DNA from: Phycisphaera mikurensis NBRC 102666
GTDB taxonomy: Bacteria > Planctomycetota > Phycisphaerae > Phycisphaerales > Phycisphaeraceae
DNA length: 32,000 bases
Assembly: GCF_000284115.1 (NCBI RefSeq)
Contig: NC_017080.1
Location: 1,410,001 to 1,442,000, forward strand
Direction of reading: 5' to 3'
Position numbers and translations under genes: made by a program. The notes below the pieces were generated by a model. The model saw only the letters and a program-made list of their open reading frames with translations. It ran no database searches and had not been told where the DNA came from. This document shows positions 6,269 to 31,569 of the stretch, piece by piece; position 1 is the stretch's first letter, and every line of letters begins with the position of its first letter.

Positions 6269-7381
6269 ATGAGCGACGCGGCCCCCCCCGGCGACCCAGG
6301 CGAAGCAACGCGGGAGAAGCTCGCGCCGCTGCGGGACGAGATCGACGCGCTCGACGAGAAGATCGTCGGGCTGCTGAACGCGCGGGCGCGGGTGGTCGTG
6401 AAGGTCGGCGAGGTGAAGCGGGCGGGCGGCGAGGACGTGCCGATCTACGCACCCGACCGCGAGCAGGCGGTGCTGGAGAAGGTCCGCAAGCTCAACCACG
6501 GGCCGCTGCCGGACCGCTGCCTGGAGGCGGTTTGGCGTGAGCTGATGAGCGGATCCTTCGCGCTGGAGCGGCCGCTGCGGATCGGCTACCTCGGGCCGGC
6601 GGGGTCCTTTTCGCACCTGGCGGCGGTGAGCAAGTTCGGCCAGTCGGTCGAGTACGACGAGCTGTCGGACTTCCCGGCGATCTTCGACGCCGTCGCCCGC
6701 GGTCACGCCGACTACGGGCTGATCCCGATCGAGAACTCCACGCACGGCGGCGTCACCGCCTCGCTGGACTGCTTCCTGGAGTCCGGGGTGCCGGTCTGCG
6801 CCGAGATCCTCCTGCCCATCCACCACAACCTGCTCTCGCGGGTGCCGCTGGAGCGGATCAAGACCGTCTACTCGCACCCGCAGGTGCTCGGCCAGTGCCA
6901 GCGCTGGCTGACGGCGCAGCTCCCGCACGCGAAGCGGCTGGACGCGGCGAGCAGCTCGCAGGCGGCGCGGATCGTCGCCGAGAACCCCTCCGAGTCCGCC
7001 GCCATCGGCAGCACGCTCGCCTCGCAGCTCTACCGCCTGCCGGTGCTCTTCGACAACATCGAGGACAACCCCAACAACACCACGCGTTTCTCGATCATCG
7101 GCCGCCAGAGCCCCCGGCCCACCGGCGAGGACAAGACGGCGCTGGTCTTCACCACGGAGCACCGCGCCGGCGCGCTCACCGACGTGCTCAACGTCTTCCG
7201 CGACCACGGCCTGAACCTCACCCGCCTCGCCGAGCGGCCGAGCCAGCGAATGAACTGGGAGTACTACTTCTTCATCGACCTGCTCGGCCACGCGGAGGAG
7301 CCGGAGGTGAAGGCGGCGCTGGACGAGGCGCGGGGGCACTGCTTGCAGCTGAAGGTGCTGGGCTCGTTTCCGCGGGCGTGA
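6269..7381 (+). CDS. pheA: bifunctional chorismate mutase / prephenate dehydratase
   Basis: ORF 6269..7381. N-terminal chorismate mutase helix (LAPLRDEIDALDEKIVGLLNARA). Prephenate dehydratase core (RIGYLGPAGSFSHLAA, GLIPIENSTHGGV, TRFSIIG). C-terminal ACT-like region. Confidence 0.9.
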   Translation: MSDAAPPGDPGEATREKLAPLRDEIDALDEKIVGLLNARARVVVKVGEVKRAGGEDVPIYAPDREQAVLEKVRKLNHGPLPDRCLEAVWRELMSGSFALERPLRIGYLGPAGSFSHLAAVSKFGQSVEYDELSDFPAIFDAVARGHADYGLIPIENSTHGGVTASLDCFLESGVPVCAEILLPIHHNLLSRVPLERIKTVYSHPQVLGQCQRWLTAQLPHAKRLDAASSSQAARIVAENPSESAAIGSTLASQLYRLPVLFDNIEDNPNNTTRFSIIGRQSPRPTGEDKTALVFTTEHRAGALTDVLNVFRDHGLNLTRLAERPSQRMNWEYYFFIDLLGHAEEPEVKAALDEARGHCLQLKVLGSFPRA

Positions 7382-7403
7382 GGGCGGCGGCTGCGCCGCT
7401 CAA

Positions 7404-7603
7404 GAGAGGAAGCGAAGAAGCGAAGAAGCGAAGAAGCGAGGAAGTGAGCAAGCGAAGAAGCGAAGAAGAAAGGAAGTGAGGAAGTGAGGCAGCGCGTCGG
7501 CTGCGCCGACCTCCGCGACGGCTGCGGATGATCCCTCTCTGACTTCTTCGCTTCTCCGCTTCTTCGCTTCCCCCCTTGCCTCCCGCGCAGCGGGATGCCC
7601 CCC
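7404..7603. repeat. structured intergenic element: 10 tandem GAAGCGAA-type octamers, small hairpin, 4 reverse-complement octamers, conserved hairpin plus C-run module
   Basis: Octamer array 7409-7488 (gaagcgaa x3, gaagcgag, gaagtgag, caagcgaa, gaagcgaa, gaagaaag, gaagtgag x2). Hairpin GTCGGC-TGC-GCCGAC at 7496-7510. Complementary units 7541-7572. Module TTGCCTCCCGCGCAGCGGGATGCCCCCC at 7576-7603 abuts the minus-strand TAA at 7604-7606. Confidence 0.85.
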
Positions 7604-8653
7604 TTAAAACCCCCACCCCACCTGCAACTGAATCTGCCCGAACGCGTCCGCATCCTCCTGCCCCTTGAACTCGTGGGTGAGGAAGGTCTGGGCGTAGCCG
7701 ATCTCGGCGTTGAAGCGGTGGCCGGTGTAGCCGACGGCGAAGCCGCCGCGGAAGATGCCCAGCAGCGGCTCGCGGTCCACGGAGGGGGAGGGGTTGCGGG
7801 CGTAGCTGCCGTCGAGGAAAGTGTTCCACTGCACGTAGCGGGCGGCGGCGCCGGCGAAGGCGTAGACGCTCCAGCCCGGCTGCGGCCCGGCGCCGGTGAA
7901 GCTGCCGGGGTCGCGGACGCGGGCGGGGCCGAAGTCGTCGGGCAGCTTCCAGCCGACGCGGGCGATGCCGCCGAGGGTTGCGTCGCGGTGCGTGGTGCCC
8001 ACGCGGACCTCGCCGTAGGGCAGCAGCTGCGCGTTGAGGCCGCCGGGGCGGAGGCCGGGCAGCCCCAGGCCGGCGGCGTCGATCCGCACGGTCCGCCGGT
8101 AGGCGAGGTCGATGGCGAACTCGTCGCCGAGCTGGCTGTCCCAGCCGTTGGGGTCGTCGCCGGTGAAGTACTCGTGGATGTACTCCTGCACCTCCTTGGC
8201 CAGCGAGCTCTCGCCGACGACGCCGAGGTTCAGCTGCAGGTGGTCGAGGTGGTCGTCGTGCTCGCGCTGGCCGTAGAAGGCGCCGTAGAGGTAGCCGGCG
8301 TAGGGCCGGTCGTCGGGGTCGGGCACCCGCGCGGTGATGTCCTCGGGGGTGTAGATCTCGTGGGCGACCATCAGGCCGACGGCGGTGCCGTCCGCCGGCA
8401 GGCCCAGGCCGTCGACGAGACCGGCGAAGGTCTCGCTCTTGTGCGCCAGATCCAGCGCGGCGCCGTTGGTGTAGTGCCGGTCCTCCAGCTCGTTGAGCTT
8501 CACGAAGGAGCCGTCGTTCTCGAAGAGCACCTGGAAGCGGTACGCGGGGCCGGCGGCGGGAAGCTCCGCGGCGGGTCGATCTTCCTGCGCCGCCGCGAGC
8601 GGCGCCAGCGCGAGGAGCAGGCCGGCGAGGGATCGTCGGGAGGTGGGTGACAT
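7604..8653 (-). CDS. LpxR-family (DUF2219) outer-membrane protein, putative lipid A deacylase
   Basis: Within ORF 7604..8902. ATG at 8653 gives the signal peptide MSPTSRRSLAGLLLALAPLAAAQE. Family-typical motifs FENDGSF, DRHYTNG, HEIYTPEDI, DRPYAGYLYG. C-terminal aromatic residue (WGF). Confidence 0.75.
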   Translation of the reverse strand: MSPTSRRSLAGLLLALAPLAAAQEDRPAAELPAAGPAYRFQVLFENDGSFVKLNELEDRHYTNGAALDLAHKSETFAGLVDGLGLPADGTAVGLMVAHEIYTPEDITARVPDPDDRPYAGYLYGAFYGQREHDDHLDHLQLNLGVVGESSLAKEVQEYIHEYFTGDDPNGWDSQLGDEFAIDLAYRRTVRIDAAGLGLPGLRPGGLNAQLLPYGEVRVGTTHRDATLGGIARVGWKLPDDFGPARVRDPGSFTGAGPQPGWSVYAFAGAAARYVQWNTFLDGSYARNPSPSVDREPLLGIFRGGFAVGYTGHRFNAEIGYAQTFLTHEFKGQEDADAFGQIQLQVGWGF

Positions 8654-8741
8654 CGGTGCGTCTTTTTCGGGCCGGACGGGAGGAGGCTCCAGCCGACGGA
8701 GCGTACGGTCGGGGCCGCCGCACCACCGTGAGGAACCCGTG

Positions 8742-10772
8742 ATGACGCTCGACGCCGCCGACCGCCCGCTCCGCCTCGCCGCCGGGGTGCTCAACCAGAC
8801 CCCGCTGGATTTCGAGGGCAACGCCGCGCGGGTCCGCCGCGCCATCGACGACGCCCGCCGCCTGGGCGCGGCGTGGCTGTGCCTGCCGGAGCTGTGCCTC
8901 ACCGGCTACGGCTGCGAGGACGCCTTCCACGCCCCGTGGGTCTGGGAAGAGGCGACGCGGGTGCTGCTGGAGGAGGTCGCCCCGGCCAGCGCGGGCGTGC
9001 TCGTCGCGGTCGGATTGCCCGTGTTCCACCACGGCGCGCTGTACAACGCGGCGGCGGTCTGCTGCGACGGCGAGGTGGTCGGTCTGGTCGCCAAGCAGAA
9101 CCTCGCCGGCGACGGGCTGCACTACGAGCCGCGCTGGTTCAAGGCGTGGCCGGGCGGCCGCGCCGCGGAGCACGGGCTGCGTGGCGGAGACGGCGCGACG
9201 GTCCGCGTCCCGATGGGGGATCTGGTGTTCGTCGTCGACGGGGTGCGCCTCGGCTTTGAGATCTGCGAGGACGCGTGGGTCGCCGACCGCCCCGGCGGCC
9301 GCCTGGCCGGCCGCGGCGTCGACGTGATCTTCAATCCCTCCGCCAGCCACTTCGCCTTCGGCAAAGCCGACGTGCGCGAGGGCTTCGTCCGCAACGGGGC
9401 CCGGGCTTTCGGCGCCGCCTACGTCTACGCGAACCTGCTCGGCAACGAGGCGGGGCGGGCGATCTACGACGGCCACGCGCACATCGCCACGCCCGGGGCG
9501 CTGGTCGCCCGCGGCCCGCGGTTGATCTTCTCGGACGTCCACGTCACCGGCGCCGAGGTCGACGTGCAGACGCTGCGGGCGCACCGGGCGAGGCGCGTCG
9601 GCCACCGGCCCGACGTGGAAGGCGGGCCCAACGAGGTCGCCTGCTCCATTGCCGATCCGCCCGAGCCCGCCGCCGGCGTCCCGCCGCTCGCGACCGCGCA
9701 GGCGCCCTGGGTGAAGAAGGGCGACACGCACGTGAAGGAGGACGACTTCTGCCGGGCCGTCGCGCTGGGCCTCTTCGACTACGCCCGCAAGAGCCACAGC
9801 CGCGGCTTCGTGGTCAGCCTCTCGGGCGGGGCCGATTCCGCCGCCGTCGTCGCGCTCGTGGCCAAGGCCGTCGAGCTCGCCGGCAACGAGCTGGGACTGC
9901 CCGCGGTGGCGTCCGCGTGGGGGCTGGACCTGCCCGAGAACGCGACCCGGGAGGAGGTCGTCGCCGCCTCGCTGACGACGATCTACCAGGCCACGCGGAA
10001 CAGCGGCAACGCGACGAAGCACGCCGCGGAATCGCTCGCCGCCGGCATCGGCGCCACCCACCACCACGCCGACGTCGAGCCGCTGGTCGCGGGCTACACC
10101 GAGCGTGCCGAGGCCTGCTTCGGCCGGAAGCTCGCCTGGGAGACCGACGACGTCGCCCTGCAGAACATCCAGGCCCGGGTGCGGTCGCCGCTGGCGTGGA
10201 TGCTCGCCAACGTCGAGGGCAAGCTGCTGCTGTCCACCAGCAACCGCAGCGAGGCCGCCGTCGGCTACGCCACGATGGACGGCGACACCAGCGGCGGCCT
10301 GTGCCCGGTGGCCGGCATCGACAAGGCCTTCCTCCGCCACTGGCTCGGCTGGCTGGAGACCCACGGCCTCCACGGCGGCAGCCCGCTCCCGGAGCTGGCC
10401 GCGGTCAACGCGCTGCAGCCCACCGCGGAGCTGCGGCCGGCCGAGCAGGCCCAGACCGACGAGGGCGACCTGATGCCCTACCCGCTGCTGGACGTTTTCG
10501 AGGAGGCCGCCATCGGCCGCAAGCTCTCGCCCGCCCGCACGCTGGCCGAGGGCGTCAAGCGTTTCCCGCAGATCCCCGACGACCGCCTCCGCGTCTACCA
10601 CGCCCGCTTCTTCCGCCTGTTCGCCCGCAACCAGTGGAAGCGCGAGCGCTACGCCCCGGCCTTCCACGTGGACGACCGGAACCTGGACCCCAAGACCTGG
10701 TGCCGCTGGCCGATCCTCTCCGGCGGCTTCGAGCGGCAGCTGGCGCGGATCGCCGAGAACGGCTCCCGCTAG
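8742..10772 (+). CDS. nadE: glutamine-dependent NAD+ synthetase
   Basis: Within ORF 8493..10772, ATG at 8742 after GAGGA. N-terminal CN-hydrolase domain (CLPELCLTGYGCED, FEICEDAW). C-terminal NAD synthetase domain (SLSGGADSA P-loop, LSTSNRSE, GYATMDGD). Confidence 0.9.
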   Translation: MTLDAADRPLRLAAGVLNQTPLDFEGNAARVRRAIDDARRLGAAWLCLPELCLTGYGCEDAFHAPWVWEEATRVLLEEVAPASAGVLVAVGLPVFHHGALYNAAAVCCDGEVVGLVAKQNLAGDGLHYEPRWFKAWPGGRAAEHGLRGGDGATVRVPMGDLVFVVDGVRLGFEICEDAWVADRPGGRLAGRGVDVIFNPSASHFAFGKADVREGFVRNGARAFGAAYVYANLLGNEAGRAIYDGHAHIATPGALVARGPRLIFSDVHVTGAEVDVQTLRAHRARRVGHRPDVEGGPNEVACSIADPPEPAAGVPPLATAQAPWVKKGDTHVKEDDFCRAVALGLFDYARKSHSRGFVVSLSGGADSAAVVALVAKAVELAGNELGLPAVASAWGLDLPENATREEVVAASLTTIYQATRNSGNATKHAAESLAAGIGATHHHADVEPLVAGYTERAEACFGRKLAWETDDVALQNIQARVRSPLAWMLANVEGKLLLSTSNRSEAAVGYATMDGDTSGGLCPVAGIDKAFLRHWLGWLETHGLHGGSPLPELAAVNALQPTAELRPAEQAQTDEGDLMPYPLLDVFEEAAIGRKLSPARTLAEGVKRFPQIPDDRLRVYHARFFRLFARNQWKRERYAPAFHVDDRNLDPKTWCRWPILSGGFERQLARIAENGSR

Positions 10773-13000: not shown

Positions 13001-13726
13001 TCAGTGCGTCAGCGCATACGCCAGGATGTTCACGTTGAGCTTCCGGGCGCTCTTGATCTCGTTGCCGCCGCAGCAGCAGCAGTCGTCGTCGGCGAACTCG
13101 GTGTCGTTGAGGCCGTCGGGGCTCCAGAGCAGCACGACGCGGCCGTCCAGCGAGATCGTCCGCAGCTCCGGCAGGCGGTCTCTGCCTTTCTTGTACTTCG
13201 AGAGGTGGACGTCGTAGACGGTGTGGAAGGCGGGGTGGTCGGCCTCGAGCACCTCCAGCTCGGCGTCGGGGAAGATCTGCCGCACGGCCTCGCCGAAGGA
13301 GGCGTTCCAGGCGGTGGACGAGCAGCTGGCCGAGCCGACCAGGAAGCCGCCGCTGGTGAGGTAGAGCCGCAGGTTCTCGACCTCGTCGTCGGAGAGCCGG
13401 AAGCGGCCGTCGCCGGACATCACGCTGAAGGGGTGGTTGAACAGGTCCGGCGAGCCGGCCTGCACGGCCTCGAAGCCGCCGGTGGTGGCGACCTCGCTGT
13501 CGGCGGAGATCTGCCGGAGGAAGTGGTCGGCGAAGCAGGTGCTGGTCTTGCCGCCGCCGTAGATGAGGTTGCCGCAGGTGACGACGCCGGGGCCGGCAGG
13601 CTCCTGCTGCGCGCCGGCGGGAACGAAGAGGACGGCAGCGAGAAGCAGCGCCAGAATCCGCGGACCGTGGGCACAAAGCGGCCAAGCGTGCGACGGTCCG
13701 CGGCGGCGGGGGGCGGGGTGCTTCAT
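13001..13726 (-). CDS. DUF4159 domain protein (GATase1-like, Bat-cluster associated)
   Basis: Within ORF 13001..14191. ATG at 13726 overlaps the upstream stop (ATGA). Signal peptide ILALLLAAVLFVPAGAQ. Family-typical TCFADHFL, SGGFLVGSASC, CCCCGGNEI. Confidence 0.75.
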   Translation of the reverse strand: MKHPAPRRRGPSHAWPLCAHGPRILALLLAAVLFVPAGAQQEPAGPGVVTCGNLIYGGGKTSTCFADHFLRQISADSEVATTGGFEAVQAGSPDLFNHPFSVMSGDGRFRLSDDEVENLRLYLTSGGFLVGSASCSSTAWNASFGEAVRQIFPDAELEVLEADHPAFHTVYDVHLSKYKKGRDRLPELRTISLDGRVVLLWSPDGLNDTEFADDDCCCCGGNEIKSARKLNVNILAYALTH

Positions 13727-16700
13727 GGGGTGGTTTCTGCGGAGGAGGTGTCGGCCTCGTCGGCGAGGCGTTGGAAGTAGGCGGCGGCGTCGGCCCGGTA
13801 GCGGGGGGCAACGCCGGCGGTGCGGGCGGAGGCAGCATCCGCGGGGGCGGACACGCCGGCCTCGATGGACTCGGAGAACACCTCGCCGGCGAGCGCGACG
13901 CCGCCGGCGTCGCCGGGGCCGCGGCCGGAACCGGGGCCCGACCCGGCCCCGTCCACGGGAACACCAGCGAGCGCGGCGTGGACGCCGGCGAGCGCCGCGG
14001 CGGTGGCCGCGCCCGGGGCGAGGCCCGCGGCGGAGCCCGCGGCACCGGTGCCGACCCCGCTGCCGCTGGCGAGGAAGCCCGGCTGGCCGCGGCCGGTGCC
14101 GGTGCCCCGCCCGCCGGGACCGGGTCGGGGCCGGCTGCCGGCCATCTCGTCGAGCGCCGCCTGCATCTGCGCTTCGGTGAGCGTGAGGCACACGTCGTCG
14201 CAGGGCTGGCCGGGGCCGACCCGCACCTGTTGCACCAAGCTCGCGAGGGCGGTGGCGATCTCGGCCGTGGCGGCGGCGGCGGGACCGGCGCTGCCCGAGG
14301 CGGCCGAGGCGATGGCCTCGTCGAACGCCGGCTCCAGCGCGAGAGCTTCGACGGCGTCGGCGATGTCGGCGGCCTGCGCGGACAGCTTCGGGACGCGTTC
14401 GACGGAGGCTTCCGCCGCTCCACGGAGCGCGTCGATCGTGACGTAGAGCTCTTGCTCCAGCGCCTCCTGCCGCTCGGCGACGGCGGCGTACGCGGCGTCC
14501 CGCTGCTCGCCCGCGGGCTTGCCGCGGAGCGCTGCGGCCTCGTCGGCGATGGCCCGCTGCTCGCGGATCGAGGTCATCAGCCGGTCGCGGAGGCCGAAGA
14601 GCTCGTCGGCGGCGGCGAGGCGCCGCAGGTCGTGCTGTGCAGGAGTCGCCGCGTCGGATGCCGGCCGCAGGGCGTACGCGCCGTCGGCGAGTTCCTCGCT
14701 GGCGGAGGGGCCGGCGGGATCGGCGGAAGCGCCGACGGAGCCCGGGGCGCCCGGCGCCTGCGGCGGGCCATCGGGTGCCGGCTCCGCCACGTCCTCCTGC
14801 TCGCCCGCGGCCCGCTGCGCCGCGGCGGCGAGGTCGCGGATGGCGTCCGCCGTTTCGCGATCGCCGGCGGCGAGGGAGGCCTCGAAGCCATAGCCCTTGA
14901 GCCGGTCGGCCCGCTTCTCGAAGGCCTCGGCCAGCGCGTCCGAGGCGGCGGTCAGGCGGCGGAGCGCGGCGGCCGCGGCCTCGCGGTCGGCGGCGAGCGA
15001 CGCGGCGTCTCCGCCGGCCTCCGCGCGGGCGGCGAGGCCGGCCAGCGTCTCGGCGAGCCGCTCCCGCTCGGCGTCGAGCAGCGACACCGCGTCGTCGAGG
15101 GCTCGCTGCTCTTCGAGCAGGTCGGCGGCGCGGCGCTGCTCGCGGAGGAGCTCCTTCATCTCCTCGTCGGAGACGATCAGCACGCCGAACTCCGCGGGCT
15201 CGGACCGCTGCGACCCGCCGAGGGCGGTGGGGCGGTTGTCCTCGGCGACCACGCGGCCGCGCACATAGTCGCCGGGCACCAGGCCCATGGCGGCGGGGAT
15301 GATGGAAACGCCGGCCGTCGCGTCGCCGGGACCGGCCAGCGGCGAGCCCTCGATCGCGAGGTCGCGCTCCGGCGAGAGGCCGGGCCGGGCCGCCTCCTCC
15401 GGCGCGGCGAGCACGCCGCGCTCCTCGGCGTAGCCGGCGCCGGCCACGGCCACGTCGTCGCGCAGCGACAGCGGCACGTCCAGCGTCTGGCTCACCGCGA
15501 GGCGGACGACCGGCGGCTCGAGCCCGACGGCGGCGACGGGCGGGGCGTCGGGCACGGCGTCGATGCGGAGGCGAAGGGCCTCTGTGGCTTCGCCTCCGGC
15601 GAGGGCGGAGGCGAGGGCGACGCGGAAGTCGCCGCTCTCGGTGACCTCCGAGCGGTGGATCGCGCGGGTGGCGCCCCTTCCCTCGACCCAGCCCGCAGTC
15701 GGCTCGACGCCCGCCGGCCCGGCGGAGATCTCCGCCAGCGGCACCCGCGTCTCCACCGCGATCTCAACCGTCGTGCCGGCGAGCGCCCGGAGCTTCAGGT
15801 GCGGCGGGAGGGTCTCCGCGTCCTCGGCGTCGGGGACGAACGGCGCCGGGATCCGCACCGTCTTCGCCGGCCGGCCGGTGTACGCCGGCGGCGTCAGCGT
15901 GACGGTGCCGCCGACGACGCGCGGCGAGACGTCGACCGGAAGCGACACCCAGCGCCCGCCGCCCAGGTCGCTCTCGACCCGGGCGTGCAGCGTCGCGGCG
16001 ACGGGCGCGGCGACCCGGCCGCGGAAGCGGCGGACGCCGGGCTGGTCCTTCTCCGACGCGCCGCCCCAGGCCACACCCACCCGCGTCAGCGGCACCGGCT
16101 CGGCCGCGTCGCCGAGGATCAGCGAGGCGCGGACGGCCGGCCGCGACCTCTCGCCGGAATCGTGCTCGGGTGCCAGCCCGAGCATCGAGACCCACCACGG
16201 CCACGCGTCGCGGATCGTCACCTCCAGCGTCGCGGGCTCGCCGGCGACCAGCGGCCGGCGGGGCTCCACGGCGAAGGCGTGCGGCGTCCAGCCGGGCAGC
16301 TCGGTGAGCGGGCGGACCATCCGGCCGAGAGACACCGCGGCGGCGGTCGGCAGCAGGACCACGAAGAGGGCGGCGAGCAGCAGCGTCTCGCCGAGCCAGC
16401 CGCGGGCGCGGCGGGCGGGGGCAGTGTCGGCCAAGGCGGCGGCGTCGCCGAGGCCCGCGGCCGCGGCGTCGCCGCGCTTGATGGCCCGGCGGCGGAGCCC
16501 GGCGGCGCCCGCCGCATCCGGCCGGGCCAACTCGTCGGCGCCGCGGAAGCGGCCGTCGCCGCGGACGCCGGCTGCCCGCTCCAGCGCCTCGACCCCCCGC
16601 TCCGCGGCGTCGCGGTCATCCGCGGCGAGCCGCCAGCCGGCCCAGCCCCCCGCGACCATCACCGGCAGCGCGAGCAGCCGCAGCGGTGCCGGCACCGGCA

Positions 16701-26988: not shown

Positions 26989-27693
26989 TCAGCCGGGCGC
27001 GTGCTCCGCCTCGGTGAAGTGCCGCCACGCGTGCACGACCGCGTCGGCGACGGCGTCGACGCCCTCGCCCTTGCGGACGGCGGTCATCAGGAACGGCCCC
27101 TCGTCCCGCATCGTGGCCGCGTCGTCGCGCATCACCGCCAGGTCGGCGCCGACGGCGTCGGCGAGGTCGATCTTGTTGATGACGAGCAGGTCGCTCTGGG
27201 TGATGCCCGGCCCGCCCTTGCGGGGCACCTTGTCGCCGCCGGCGACGTCGATCACGTAGATCGTGAAGTCGGCCAGCTCGCGGCTGAAGTGCGCGGCGAG
27301 GTTGTCGCCGCCGGACTCGCACAGCAGCAGCTCGGGGTGGTGGCGCTTGGTCAGCGACTCGAGCGCGAGCAGGTTGGGCGTTACGTCCTCGCGGATCGCG
27401 GTGTGCGGGCAGCCGCCGGTCTCGACCGCGGCGATGCGGTCGTGCGGGAGGGCGTCGTGGCGGACCAGGAACTCGGCGTCTTCGCGGGTGAAGATGTCGT
27501 TGGTCACGACGGCGAGCGAGAGCTTCTCCCGCAGCTTCAGGCACAGCGCGAGCACGAGCGCCGTCTTCCCGGAGCCGACGGGCCCGCCGATGCCGACGGT
27601 GAAGGCGCGTCGGGCGGTGTCGCGGCCGACGAGCGCGGCCTCGCGGTGGGCGAAGTGGCCGGGGTCGTCGGCGTGGTCGGCGGACATGTGCAT
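26989..27693 (-). CDS. ureG: urease accessory GTPase UreG
   Basis: ORF 26989..27693. [10 protein letters not shown]-loop, ETGGCPH, ESGGDNL, INKIDL. Confidence 0.95.
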
Positions 27694-27887
27694 GGATCAA
27701 TCCTCAAGCGGGTGTCGCGGCGGCAGCGGGCCGAGCCGTTGTAGCCCACCCGCCGCGGAGGAGCGGAAGCCTTCGAAGCGCAAGAGCGTGGAACAAAAGA
27801 TGAACGCCCCCAAAACCACCCCAGCCCCCACCCACCCCGCCGCCCTCCACAACGCCCCCCCCCACCCGCCCGCCCCCCCAGACCCTC

Positions 27888-28008
27888 CGCTTCCTCGCTC
27901 CCCCACTTCCCCACTTCTCCACTTCTCCGCTTCTCCGCTTCTCCACTTCTTCGCTTCCTCACTTCTTCGCTTCTTCGCTTGCCTCCGCGCAGCGGATCCC
28001 CCCCCCTC
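27888..28008. repeat. 12 tandem CRCTTCYY octamers plus conserved hairpin and C-run module in the ureF-ureG spacer
   Basis: Units read in phase from 27888 to 27983 (cgcttcct, cgctcccc, cacttccc, cacttctc x2, cgcttctc x2, cacttctt, cgcttcct, cacttctt, cgcttctt, cgcttgcc). Module TTGCCTCCGCGCAGCGGATCCCCCCCCC at 27979-28006 lies 2 nt from the ureF stop (28009-28011). Confidence 0.85.
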
Positions 28009-28683
28009 TCAACTCTGAAACAACTTCGAATACAGCCGCGGCTGCTCCCCGCTGAGCAGCGTGAGCAGGGGGCTCGTCGTGCAGACCTCCTCGAGCGAAC
28101 GGGCCAGGCTTCCGTCCGCCAGCGACTCCGCCTCGGCGGCGAGGCGGGCGAGGCGGGCCTGGGCGTCGAGCGGGCCGGCGATGCCGAGGCGGACGGCGGC
28201 GGAGAAGACCGTCCGGGCATCGGCGAAGAGGAAGGCCCGCGCAGCCTCCGATGCCCCGACGCCGGCGGCGGAGGTGACCAGCCCGAAGGCCACGGGCAGG
28301 TGGCCTCCGCCGGCGAGCGCGGCCTCCGCCTCCGCCACGCCGGGCAGGGCGAGCCCGCGGGCGGCGGCGAGCAGCCCGCCGCCGAGGCGGAGGCTCGCGC
28401 GGTGCGCGACCGCCTCGGCGGTGGCGGCCCCGCAGCGGGCATCCAGGTCGCGGAGCCGCGGGGGGTCGTCCGCGGCCCGCCCGGCGGCCCGGACGAAGAC
28501 CAGCGGGCCGGCGGCCAGGTCCCGGAAGCGTCGCCGCGCGAAGCGCTCCACGCCCGCCGCGTCCGCGACGCGGCCGGCCTGCGCCGCGGCCTCGAGCCCG
28601 CCGGAGTGGGCGAACCCGCCCGCGGGGAAGGCGCTGTCGATCACCTGCCAAAGGGTCCACGGGGCGGAGGAGGGGGCACCCAT
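28009..28683 (-). CDS. ureF: urease accessory protein UreF
   Basis: ORF 28009..28683. N-terminal LWQVIDSAFPAGGFAHSGGLE motif typical of UreF. All-helical Ala-rich remainder. Confidence 0.85.
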   Translation of the reverse strand: MGAPSSAPWTLWQVIDSAFPAGGFAHSGGLEAAAQAGRVADAAGVERFARRRFRDLAAGPLVFVRAAGRAADDPPRLRDLDARCGAATAEAVAHRASLRLGGGLLAAARGLALPGVAEAEAALAGGGHLPVAFGLVTSAAGVGASEAARAFLFADARTVFSAAVRLGIAGPLDAQARLARLAAEAESLADGSLARSLEEVCTTSPLLTLLSGEQPRLYSKLFQS

Positions 28684-31429: not shown

Positions 31430-31569
31430 CGAGCAGCGCTTCGCTTGAACACAGAGGGCACAGAGGCACAGAGGCACAGAGAGAGGCACAGGGCAAGGCG
31501 GAGAGAGTCCGCTCCCCCCTTGGGCCTCCGTGCCTCTTCTCCCTCCGTGTTTCAGAGAAGCGTTGCTCG
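31430..31569. repeat. structured intergenic element: CACAGAGG tandem units, hairpin plus C-run, reverse-complement arm, outer 13-bp stem
   Basis: Outer stem CGAGCAGCGCTTC (31430-31442) against GAAGCGTTGCTCG (31557-31569), 12 of 13 complementary. CACAGAGG-type units 31450-31493. GGCGGA-GAGAG-TCCGCT hairpin followed by CCCCCC (about 31497-31519). Pyrimidine arm CCTCCGTGCCTCTTCTCCCTCCGTG (31525-31549). Confidence 0.8.

Follow-up and report, generated by a model that had tools for sequence, protein, structure and literature searches.

Dispersed repeats of a small hairpin and octamer arrays in the Phycisphaera lineage, including a one-armed copy between ureF and ureG

Repetitive extragenic palindromic (REP) sequences and bacterial interspersed mosaic elements (BIMEs) are found between convergent genes and affect the stability of the upstream mRNA; BIMEs serve as binding sites for IHF, DNA polymerase I, and gyrase (PMC3184786), and a GTAG or CGTC tag is a hallmark of REP sequences (PMC3733652). 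Hairpins formed by sequences of the short tandemly repeated repetitive (STRR) type, for instance those between hupS and hupL, have been suggested to act in transcript stability or translational coupling (PMC2670836), and mycobacterial interspersed repetitive units (MIRUs) sit flush with gene boundaries (PMC12548453). In Geobacter metallireducens, paired tandem octanucleotide sites (classes 1-3), some of them between genes of one operon such as proB and proA, are read as DNA sites for IHF/HU (PMC2700814). Here we analyze an octamer array in the spacer between the urease genes ureF and ureG of the planctomycete Phycisphaera mikurensis NBRC 102666. It lies in a stretch of 32,000 nt (positions 1,410,001 to 1,442,000 of contig NC_017080.1; G+C content 74%), hereafter called the window, to which all coordinates given without a locus name refer. 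The reading that we favor, at a probability of roughly 55%, is that the array belongs to a dispersed intergenic repeat of the Phycisphaera lineage akin to REP/BIME, miniature inverted-repeat transposable elements (MITEs), and STRRs, and that complete copies of this repeat act as RNA 3'-end or intercistronic hairpins.

The P. mikurensis sequence that was read amounts to 45,032 nt and comprises the window plus loci fetched around window genes, among them locus L031, which reaches past the window end; copy counts refer to this sequence. UreG of this organism is encoded on JACHEL010000003.1 of assembly GCA_014207395.1. Contigs of relatives were reached via homologues of UreF, of PheA, and of a lineage-specific protein encoded downstream of ureG; those compared were L029, L033, L066, L067/L068, L069, L070, L071, and L072 (Algisphaera agarilytica). 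The last four of these loci were fetched through PheA homologues after our rules had been framed, as a prospective check. Tandem arrays were detected with Tandem Repeats Finder (TRF), and fold z-scores are given relative to shuffled sequence.

The genes ureG (26989-27693) and ureF (28009-28683) are both located on the minus strand and are separated by 315 nt, as a preliminary description of this DNA had stated. Its count of twelve octamers, placed at 27888-27983, agrees with the TRF result of a period of 8 with 12.0 copies and 82% matches at 27885-27980 (Table 1). On the plus strand, the array is followed by CTTGCC, the hairpin TCCGC-GCA-GCGGA, a single T, and a run of nine C residues. G makes up 49% of the sense strand of the spacer, and two inverted repeats (I1 and I2) on its ureG-proximal side are 74-92% complementary to the array. 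This copy is lopsided, with a 5' arm expanded to 12 units, a G-rich center, and a 3' arm that has decayed.

Table 1. Features of the octamer elements and of the related long hairpins in the window and directly beyond it.
Feature	Position	Strand	Basis or remark
ureF stop codon TGA	28009..28011	-	open reading frame 28009-28683(-), 224 aa, 100% identical to P. mikurensis UreF
G9 run, 2 nt beyond the ureF stop	27998..28006	-	direct reading
Small hairpin UCCGC-UGC-GCGGA	27984..27996	-	core CCGCTGCGCGG restricted to array-adjacent sites; covariation, 10 copies
GGCAAG junction, base of the long-hairpin arm	27978..27983	-	pairs with CTTG of the opposite arm in two-armed copies
Purine-rich octamer array, 12 x AAGYGRRG, 5' arm	27885..27980	-	TRF and pattern matches
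G-rich central tract	27800..27884	-	regex scan; two G-quadruplex motifs, 27825-27845 and 27865-27885
Decayed pyrimidine 3' arm, end ...GCTCCTCCGCGG	27755..27793	-	inverted repeats I1, I2; orthologous to the end of the L033 3' arm
ureG leader with GAGGA ribosome-binding site	27694..27754	-	aligns with the L033 ureG leader; ureG ATG 27691-27693
lpxR-side module G6, CA, UCCCGC-UGC-GCGGGA, GGCAAG	7575..7603	-	0 nt from the lpxR stop TAA (7604-7606)
lpxR-side purine array, 3.5 units (3' arm on the plus strand)	7543..7570	-	TRF; pairs with 7401-7457
pheA-side copy: GGGC, hairpin GGCGGC-UGC-GCCGCU (7386-7400), CAAG (7401-7404), array of 11.6 units (7402-7494)	7382..7494	+	directly after the pheA stop 7379-7381
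Central hairpin GUCGGC-UGC-GCCGAC, apex of the long hairpin	7496..7510	+	direct reading, hairpin search
Long hairpin of the sister family, CACAGAGG-unit arms, urtA-urtB spacer	31430..31569	+	TRF, inverted repeats; fold z = -7.9
Second sister-family copy, urtBC-urtD spacer beyond the window	L031 14588-14732 (window ~34679-34823)		fold z = -8.0

The preliminary description had also recognized a 28-nt module shared by the ureF site and a site at 7.4 kb. This module is indeed present at both: the window contains two matches to the pattern TTGCCTCC(C)GCGCAGC(G)GGAT (27979-27997 and 7576-7596), with none expected from 100 shuffles, and the ureF and lpxR modules agree at 26 of 28 positions. Their stems, TCCGC/GCGGA with five pairs and TCCCGC/GCGGGA with six, are distinguished by an additional C on one side and an additional G on the other and enclose a GCA loop (plus strand) in both cases. 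What had been taken for a single copy at 7.4 kb, however, is a pair of head-to-head elements between the convergent genes pheA (6269-7381, +) and lpxR (7604-8902, -; identified as LpxR through Pfam), which brings the window total to three. The opposed arrays at this site pair with each other, with CAAG and CTTG forming the base of the stem, and the locus folds with z = -3.7 on the plus strand and z = -6.1 on the minus strand. The complete order "stop, G-run, triloop hairpin, CAAG, (AAGYGRRG)n" occurs three times in the window against an expectation of zero. Five arrays at four loci were found in the 45 kb of P. mikurensis, and five of the seven hairpins of the form NNGCTGCGCN'N' (NNGC-TGC-GCN'N') present there on both strands fall within octamer elements. 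We are thus dealing with a repeat family that carries a conserved module, and not with random low complexity, a point on which the preliminary description was right.

Full-length versions of the element are present in relatives. In L033, whose UreF is 70% identical to that of P. mikurensis and whose gene order is the same, the ureF-ureG spacer measures 243 nt and contains, in this order, TGA, GGGC, the hairpin AGCGGC-UUC-GCCGCU, and CAAAG; next come a purine array made of AAGAGAGA units and a GA run, then a CGGC-GCA-GCCG hairpin in the center and the pyrimidine array (CTTTCTCT)n, and last CTTGCTCCGCGG and a leader rich in C in front of the ATG. Its fold scores z = -5.1, with the small hairpin included in the minimum-energy structure. 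Direct alignment showed that the ureG-proximal spacer ends of L033 and P. mikurensis correspond; hence, the ureF-ureG element predates the split of the two organisms, and its old age follows from its being shared at the same position, in keeping with the earlier suggestion that the element had been recruited there. An inversion of the P. mikurensis copy relative to that of L033, which the shared ACAACGCCC had brought into consideration, was rejected since these ends are collinear. The stop-side module of L033 is near-identical to the pheA-side module of P. mikurensis, and not to its ureF-side module; it departs from the former at two positions, one of which turns a G.U into an A-U pair and the other of which lies in the loop.

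In L067, the argS|SASA spacer reads TAG, G8, CA, UGGC-UGC-GCCA, GGCAAG, and an array, followed by CUGACU, a pyrimidine array, CUUGCCCCC, 18 nt, and ATG. The Na/H-exchanger|argS spacer of the same contig begins with TAA, GGCA, UGGC-UUC-GCCA, AGCAAG, and an array, and holds two more internal hairpin-GCAAG-array units. Complete members fold far better than their shuffled counterparts (z = -3.7, -6.1, -5.1, -4.2, -7.9, and -8.0). A single base of the argS-side hairpin distinguishes the near-identical metagenome contigs L067 and L068 (L067 3140-3150, TGCC; L068 972-982, TGGC); the L067 version breaks a stem pair and may represent a polymorphism or an assembly error.

The extra C and extra G had been interpreted as a compensatory change of the stem, and a comparison across copies agrees with this view. 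So as not to select for pairing, every junction of CAAG with a purine run was listed in the loci of the Phycisphaera lineage. A triloop hairpin precedes all junctions on the side of the upstream gene and is absent on the four sides facing a downstream gene; (R)GCAAG or CAAG stands between hairpin and array in all copies of this family (family 1). Ten hairpins from three genomes were aligned on their loop. Standard pairs were formed by 81.7% of the cells, compared with 63.5% after shuffling, and the covariation score was 0.456 versus 0.166, a value reached by none of 500 shuffles, although the ten copies are mutually related and hence non-independent. When the 3' partners were slid by 1-3 columns as a control, 28-43% of the cells were paired. 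Two pairs switch fully, from CG to UA and from GC to CG, with no unpaired cases. Covariation across ten copies thus marks the paired C/G indel as one instance of a real constraint. DNA palindromes can also stay complementary through template switching, and this constraint therefore need not act on RNA.

The modules have a preferred position. Six of the seven terminal modules begin 0-2 nt past a stop codon on the same strand, namely those of P. mikurensis ureF, lpxR, and pheA, of L033 ureF, and of the L067 argS and Na/H-exchanger genes. The distances of 0 and 2 nt reported beforehand for the first two window copies were read directly (between C-run and stop codon there are 2 nt at ureF and 0 nt at lpxR), and the anticipated stop-codon bias of further copies held with one exception, in L069, to which we return below. 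G-runs equivalent to the G9 run behind ureF follow the stop in five other terminal modules, and none were found after the stops of element-free genes. The stops in front of the four ureF-type modules are TAA (7604-7606), TAG and TAA (L067 3167-3169 and 5165-5167), and TGA, whereas TGA closes nearly all other genes of these high-GC loci, as it does the orthologous lpxR genes of L069 and L070, which are without a module. The ureF-type module may bring, or favor, its own stop codon. In P. mikurensis, the final ureF codons TAT TCG AAG TTG TTT CAG AGT (28012-28035, minus strand) are oddly AT-ending for a genome with ~95% G+C at third codon positions, and the final lpxR codon is TTT, compared with TTC in L069.

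A complete member is arranged, in the sense of the upstream gene, as stop codon, G-run, a GC hairpin of 4-6 bp with a UKC triloop, and (R)GCAAG; next come a purine-rich 8-nt array ending near AGUCAG and a short center with another small hairpin, and then the complementary pyrimidine array CUGACU...CUUG with a C-run and a leader of 20-100 nt in front of the next gene. The purine and pyrimidine arrays are predicted to pair into a long imperfect hairpin, which would be transcribed within the operon mRNA. If the element acts at all, it probably does so as an RNA 3'-end or intercistronic hairpin. We infer a structural role of complete copies at the RNA level, through protection of 3' ends, a processing site, or termination without a U-tract: within operons, they could be a barrier or processing site that shields the upstream cistron at its 3' end and uncouples the downstream cistron from it, like REP/BIME or STRR, and between convergent genes they could alternatively serve as a U-tract-less bidirectional terminator. 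The arrays most likely lengthen and shorten by replication slippage. The one-armed ureF-ureG copy, whose long hairpin is lost, probably has at most a weak effect.

Several of our results weigh against such a role. The RNA of the ureF-ureG spacer does not fold better than shuffled sequence (z = +0.5 for the whole spacer and -0.6 for its inner part), a terminator scan of 27500-28200 yielded no terminator-like sites, and a consensus promoter scan revealed no sigma-70 promoter in this spacer. No T-run follows any hairpin of the window elements (ureF-ureG and pheA|lpxR), so that none has the signature of an intrinsic terminator. Folded alone, the small hairpin is thermodynamically ordinary, with z near 0 in three of five copies, and the ureF-ureG copy, taken by itself, has a minimum-energy fold other than this hairpin. 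The exceptional, family-like element of L069 (20380-20510) carries its module on the side of the downstream gene, where the CAT of the module, read on the opposite strand, supplies that gene's ATG. L069 and L070, the closest relatives by PheA identity (92-93%), retain the convergent pheA|lpxR arrangement with a 209-nt spacer whose right half (CTGACTTCG... pyrimidine arm) is orthologous to that of P. mikurensis, and this spacer contains neither long arrays nor G-run/hairpin modules. Finally, ~60 kb of sequence from L066, L069, and L070, the closest relatives, contains few members of the family or none, which argues against an indispensable function.

This patchy distribution, in which the family has bloomed in P. 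mikurensis, L033, and L067 and is scarce or missing in L066, L069, and L070, is also what selfish or neutral DNA would produce, the main rival to a role in RNA and a possible explanation that we nevertheless consider somewhat unlikely. A MITE- or REP-like module would then spread or be gene-converted, its arrays would expand by slippage, and the place next to a stop codon would simply be a tolerated site. Presence/absence differences at orthologous sites are evident at ureF|ureG, at the junction of binding-protein (SBP) and permease genes, and at the lpxR stop. In the more distant L029 (UreF 62% identical), 66 nt with no array separate ureF from ureG; the SBP|permease junction is filled in L067 and L033 and measures 39 nt without an element in P. 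mikurensis; and the small hairpin at the lpxR stop is a ~16-nt insertion in P. mikurensis relative to L069 and L070. In the 1.3-Mb contig of the relative L066 there is no ureFG at the syntenic place, the spacer after pheA in A. agarilytica is 44 nt long, and a search for arrays and junctions in L071 and L072 found no element. The term "mobile" used in the preliminary description is thus justified at least in the sense of turnover between relatives. Copies within a genome are more alike than orthologous copies, as the close match of the ureF and lpxR modules and the likeness of the L033 ureF module to that of P. mikurensis pheA attest; the ureF-ureG copy is asymmetric and decayed; and the L069 module coincides with a start codon of the opposite strand. 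Left ends are flush with stops, and from every right-hand end it is another 18-105 nt to the next start codon. The flush left ends have a simple alternative explanation: in short spacers, an insertion would be tolerated only just after the stop, because the other side holds the ribosome-binding site.

Selfish DNA accounts less well for the element at ureF-ureG, which two species have retained in one and the same place despite the divergence of their UreF proteins, and for the compensatory changes that maintain the stem, although palindrome correction at the DNA level could achieve the latter as well. Moreover, comparison of filled with empty sites revealed no target-site duplication and no clean terminal inverted repeats; the element ends, G-run-CAAG and CTTG-C-run, constitute a weak inverted repeat.

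It is very unlikely, in our estimation, that the arrays function as DNA-level binding sites that recruit a nucleoid-associated protein of the IHF/HU type or gyrase. Paired inverted arrays of 7-9-nt units are so interpreted in the work on G. metallireducens (PMC2700814), BIMEs are bound by IHF, DNA polymerase I, and gyrase (PMC3184786), and the array units of the present family vary by locus with the architecture retained. Yet units as diverse as AAGCGAAG, AAGAGAGA, CACAGAGG, and a (GA)17 run are hard to fit to one sequence-specific binder, the 8-bp period does not match the helical repeat of DNA, and no candidate protein was identified.

We give hardly any credence to an action of the array in translation or on an RNA-binding protein, be it through GGA/GGAG standby sites, a coupled upstream open reading frame (ORF) for ureG, or CsrA-like titration: it would make use of the nine GGA and six GGAG motifs at 8-nt spacing in the ureF-ureG array (about ten had been noted, with a hint at ureG translation) and of the ureF frame that stays open through the spacer, but this hint fails to generalize, because the same kind of array stands behind the final genes of a convergent pair, which has no downstream cistron. 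In addition, the arrays of relatives consist of AAGAGAGA or GA repeats with few GGA, the geometry of upstream ORFs is inconsistent in nine spacers, and there is neither an Rfam match to CsrB/Rsm-type RNAs nor a display of GGA in hairpin loops.

Two specific candidates of this kind were rejected. A MIRU-like coupled small ORF is at odds with the stop/start geometry across the nine spacers and with a unit of 8 nt versus 40-100 bp, and a CsrB/RsmZ-type sponge is at odds with the location of the nine GGA motifs in a repeat arm and with the result that the ureF-ureG spacer has no Rfam match at E <= 1. The ureF frame is open across the entire spacer (27697-28011, minus strand), closes 3 nt before the ureG ATG, and includes a 69-aa ORF with a GTG start (27697-27906); given the G-rich sequence, its being open is probably due to chance.

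A second family of long hairpins was found in the spacers of transporter operons. Its arms consist of CACAGAGG or CACGGAGG units with the conserved base AGCGCTKCGCTTGAMCACAGAGG, and the urtBC-urtD copy (Table 1) bears the same CCGCUGCGCGG hairpin beside its array. CACAGAGG-family hairpins are also located in spacers of amino-acid ABC transporter operons of L067 and L033.

The urease genes themselves are scattered (L031 16413-16999 and 17089-20877): ureF and ureG share one strand, the opposite one carries urtABCDE, two Uma2-family genes, and ureD, and a fused ureAB is located beyond a PhyH gene and a gene for an AraC-type regulator. No ureE is present between ureF and ureG.

A scan of a genome collection with a CAAG-anchored array pattern gave 26 unrelated loci (L003-L028), with (GAAGYGRR)n arrays in Acidobacteriota, Gemmatimonadales, Planctomycetota, Kiritimatiellia, Streptomyces, Agromyces, Microcystis, Bacteroidales, and others. 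About 10 of the 26 arrays begin within ~70 nt after, or overlap, the stop of a credible gene on the same strand; five loci have an inverted partner array, several lie beside other arrays of 7-9-nt units, and at least two arrays (L027 and L008) are situated inside long ORFs. In metagenomes, the hairpin core combined with an array gave no matches, and the pheA-type module gave 32, all of them unrelated GC-rich and mostly coding sequences, none with an array. In L066 (13055-15150), repeats ~134 nt apart with a GCATC-CGGC-TKC-GCCG-GATC hairpin, similar in flavor to the module, flank a gene for a DDE transposase (13686-14903).

To our knowledge, there is next to no information on the ways in which Planctomycetota end or partition their transcripts. 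A more far-reaching idea, which we put forward tentatively and regard as unlikely, is that the G-run and the covarying triloop hairpin might be a polar mark of cistron 3' ends in Phycisphaerae, read at or just after translation termination or left as a 3' cap after processing, with the arrays as an evolvable tuning arm; it would then be the local form of a wider stop-adjacent (GAAGYGRR)n habit in Acidobacteriota, Gemmatimonadota, Actinomycetota, Bacteroidota, and others. The hairpin could be read at termination since the terminating ribosome must melt it.

If the elements act on RNA, they would offer natural sites at which 3'-end formation and the unequal expression of operon genes (a binding-protein gene versus a permease gene, ureF versus ureG) can be studied; if they are merely selfish DNA, they are an ordinary new repeat family. 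They provide, in addition, a clean case of hairpin arms built from fast-evolving tandem repeats, in which conserved non-repeat ends make the copies recognizable across species. At the practical level, the arrays break short-read assemblies, and gene callers may read through them and fuse neighbors. Logan short-read contigs of the same strain (L002, L030, and L032) end at or near octamer arrays (window ~27814, 7431, and 27951), which fits multi-copy or tandem k-mers, and in L069 (19136-21113, minus strand) a gene caller joined a frameshifted rpoN and a DUF4126-like gene into a 779-aa product via a stop-less repeat element.

How, then, does the family compare with described elements? We found no description of these elements in Phycisphaera in the literature. 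No Rfam family matched at gathering thresholds, and the 7.4-kb locus gave only far-sub-threshold miRNA-precursor noise of the sort typical for any long hairpin. REP/BIME are likewise small GC-rich extragenic hairpins that are dispersed, often clustered, and favored in the spacers of convergent genes and, behind binding-protein genes, of transporter operons; here, this likeness is carried by the small hairpin module, an intergenic palindrome with a GC stem of 4-6 bp and a triloop that covaries in ten copies, and by the urtA|urtB position. Unlike in REP sequences, the hairpin is shorter (4-6 bp) and joined to long arms of 8-nt tandem repeats; no GTAG or CGTC stands beside any module, and no RAYT-like gene appears in the gene lists of the 45 kb read. 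MITE-like palindromes (ERIC, Correia/NEMIS, RPE) and MIRUs are non-autonomous, are transcribed within operons, and show presence/absence differences as observed here, but the arms of the present elements are tandem arrays and not unique sequence. The Geobacter sites, known from genome annotation alone, resemble the family in that intergenic regions hold pairs of inverted, variably spaced sets of three to five tandem 7-9-nt units, and, as far as the published consensus units go, their class 2 unit TCTCCGTS is similar to the CTCCGTGC units of the sister family; no stop-adjacent hairpin module is described for them (PMC2700814). The STRRs of heterocystous cyanobacteria share with the family short tandem units, an intergenic or intercistronic location, and the capacity to form hairpins. 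The family described here is nevertheless no member of the STRRs, from which it is set apart by its unit of 8 nt instead of 7, by its planctomycete host, by its defined polarity with the purine arm first, and by conserved ends that lie outside the repeats, namely the hairpin module, CAAG/CTTG, and AGTCAG/CTGACT.

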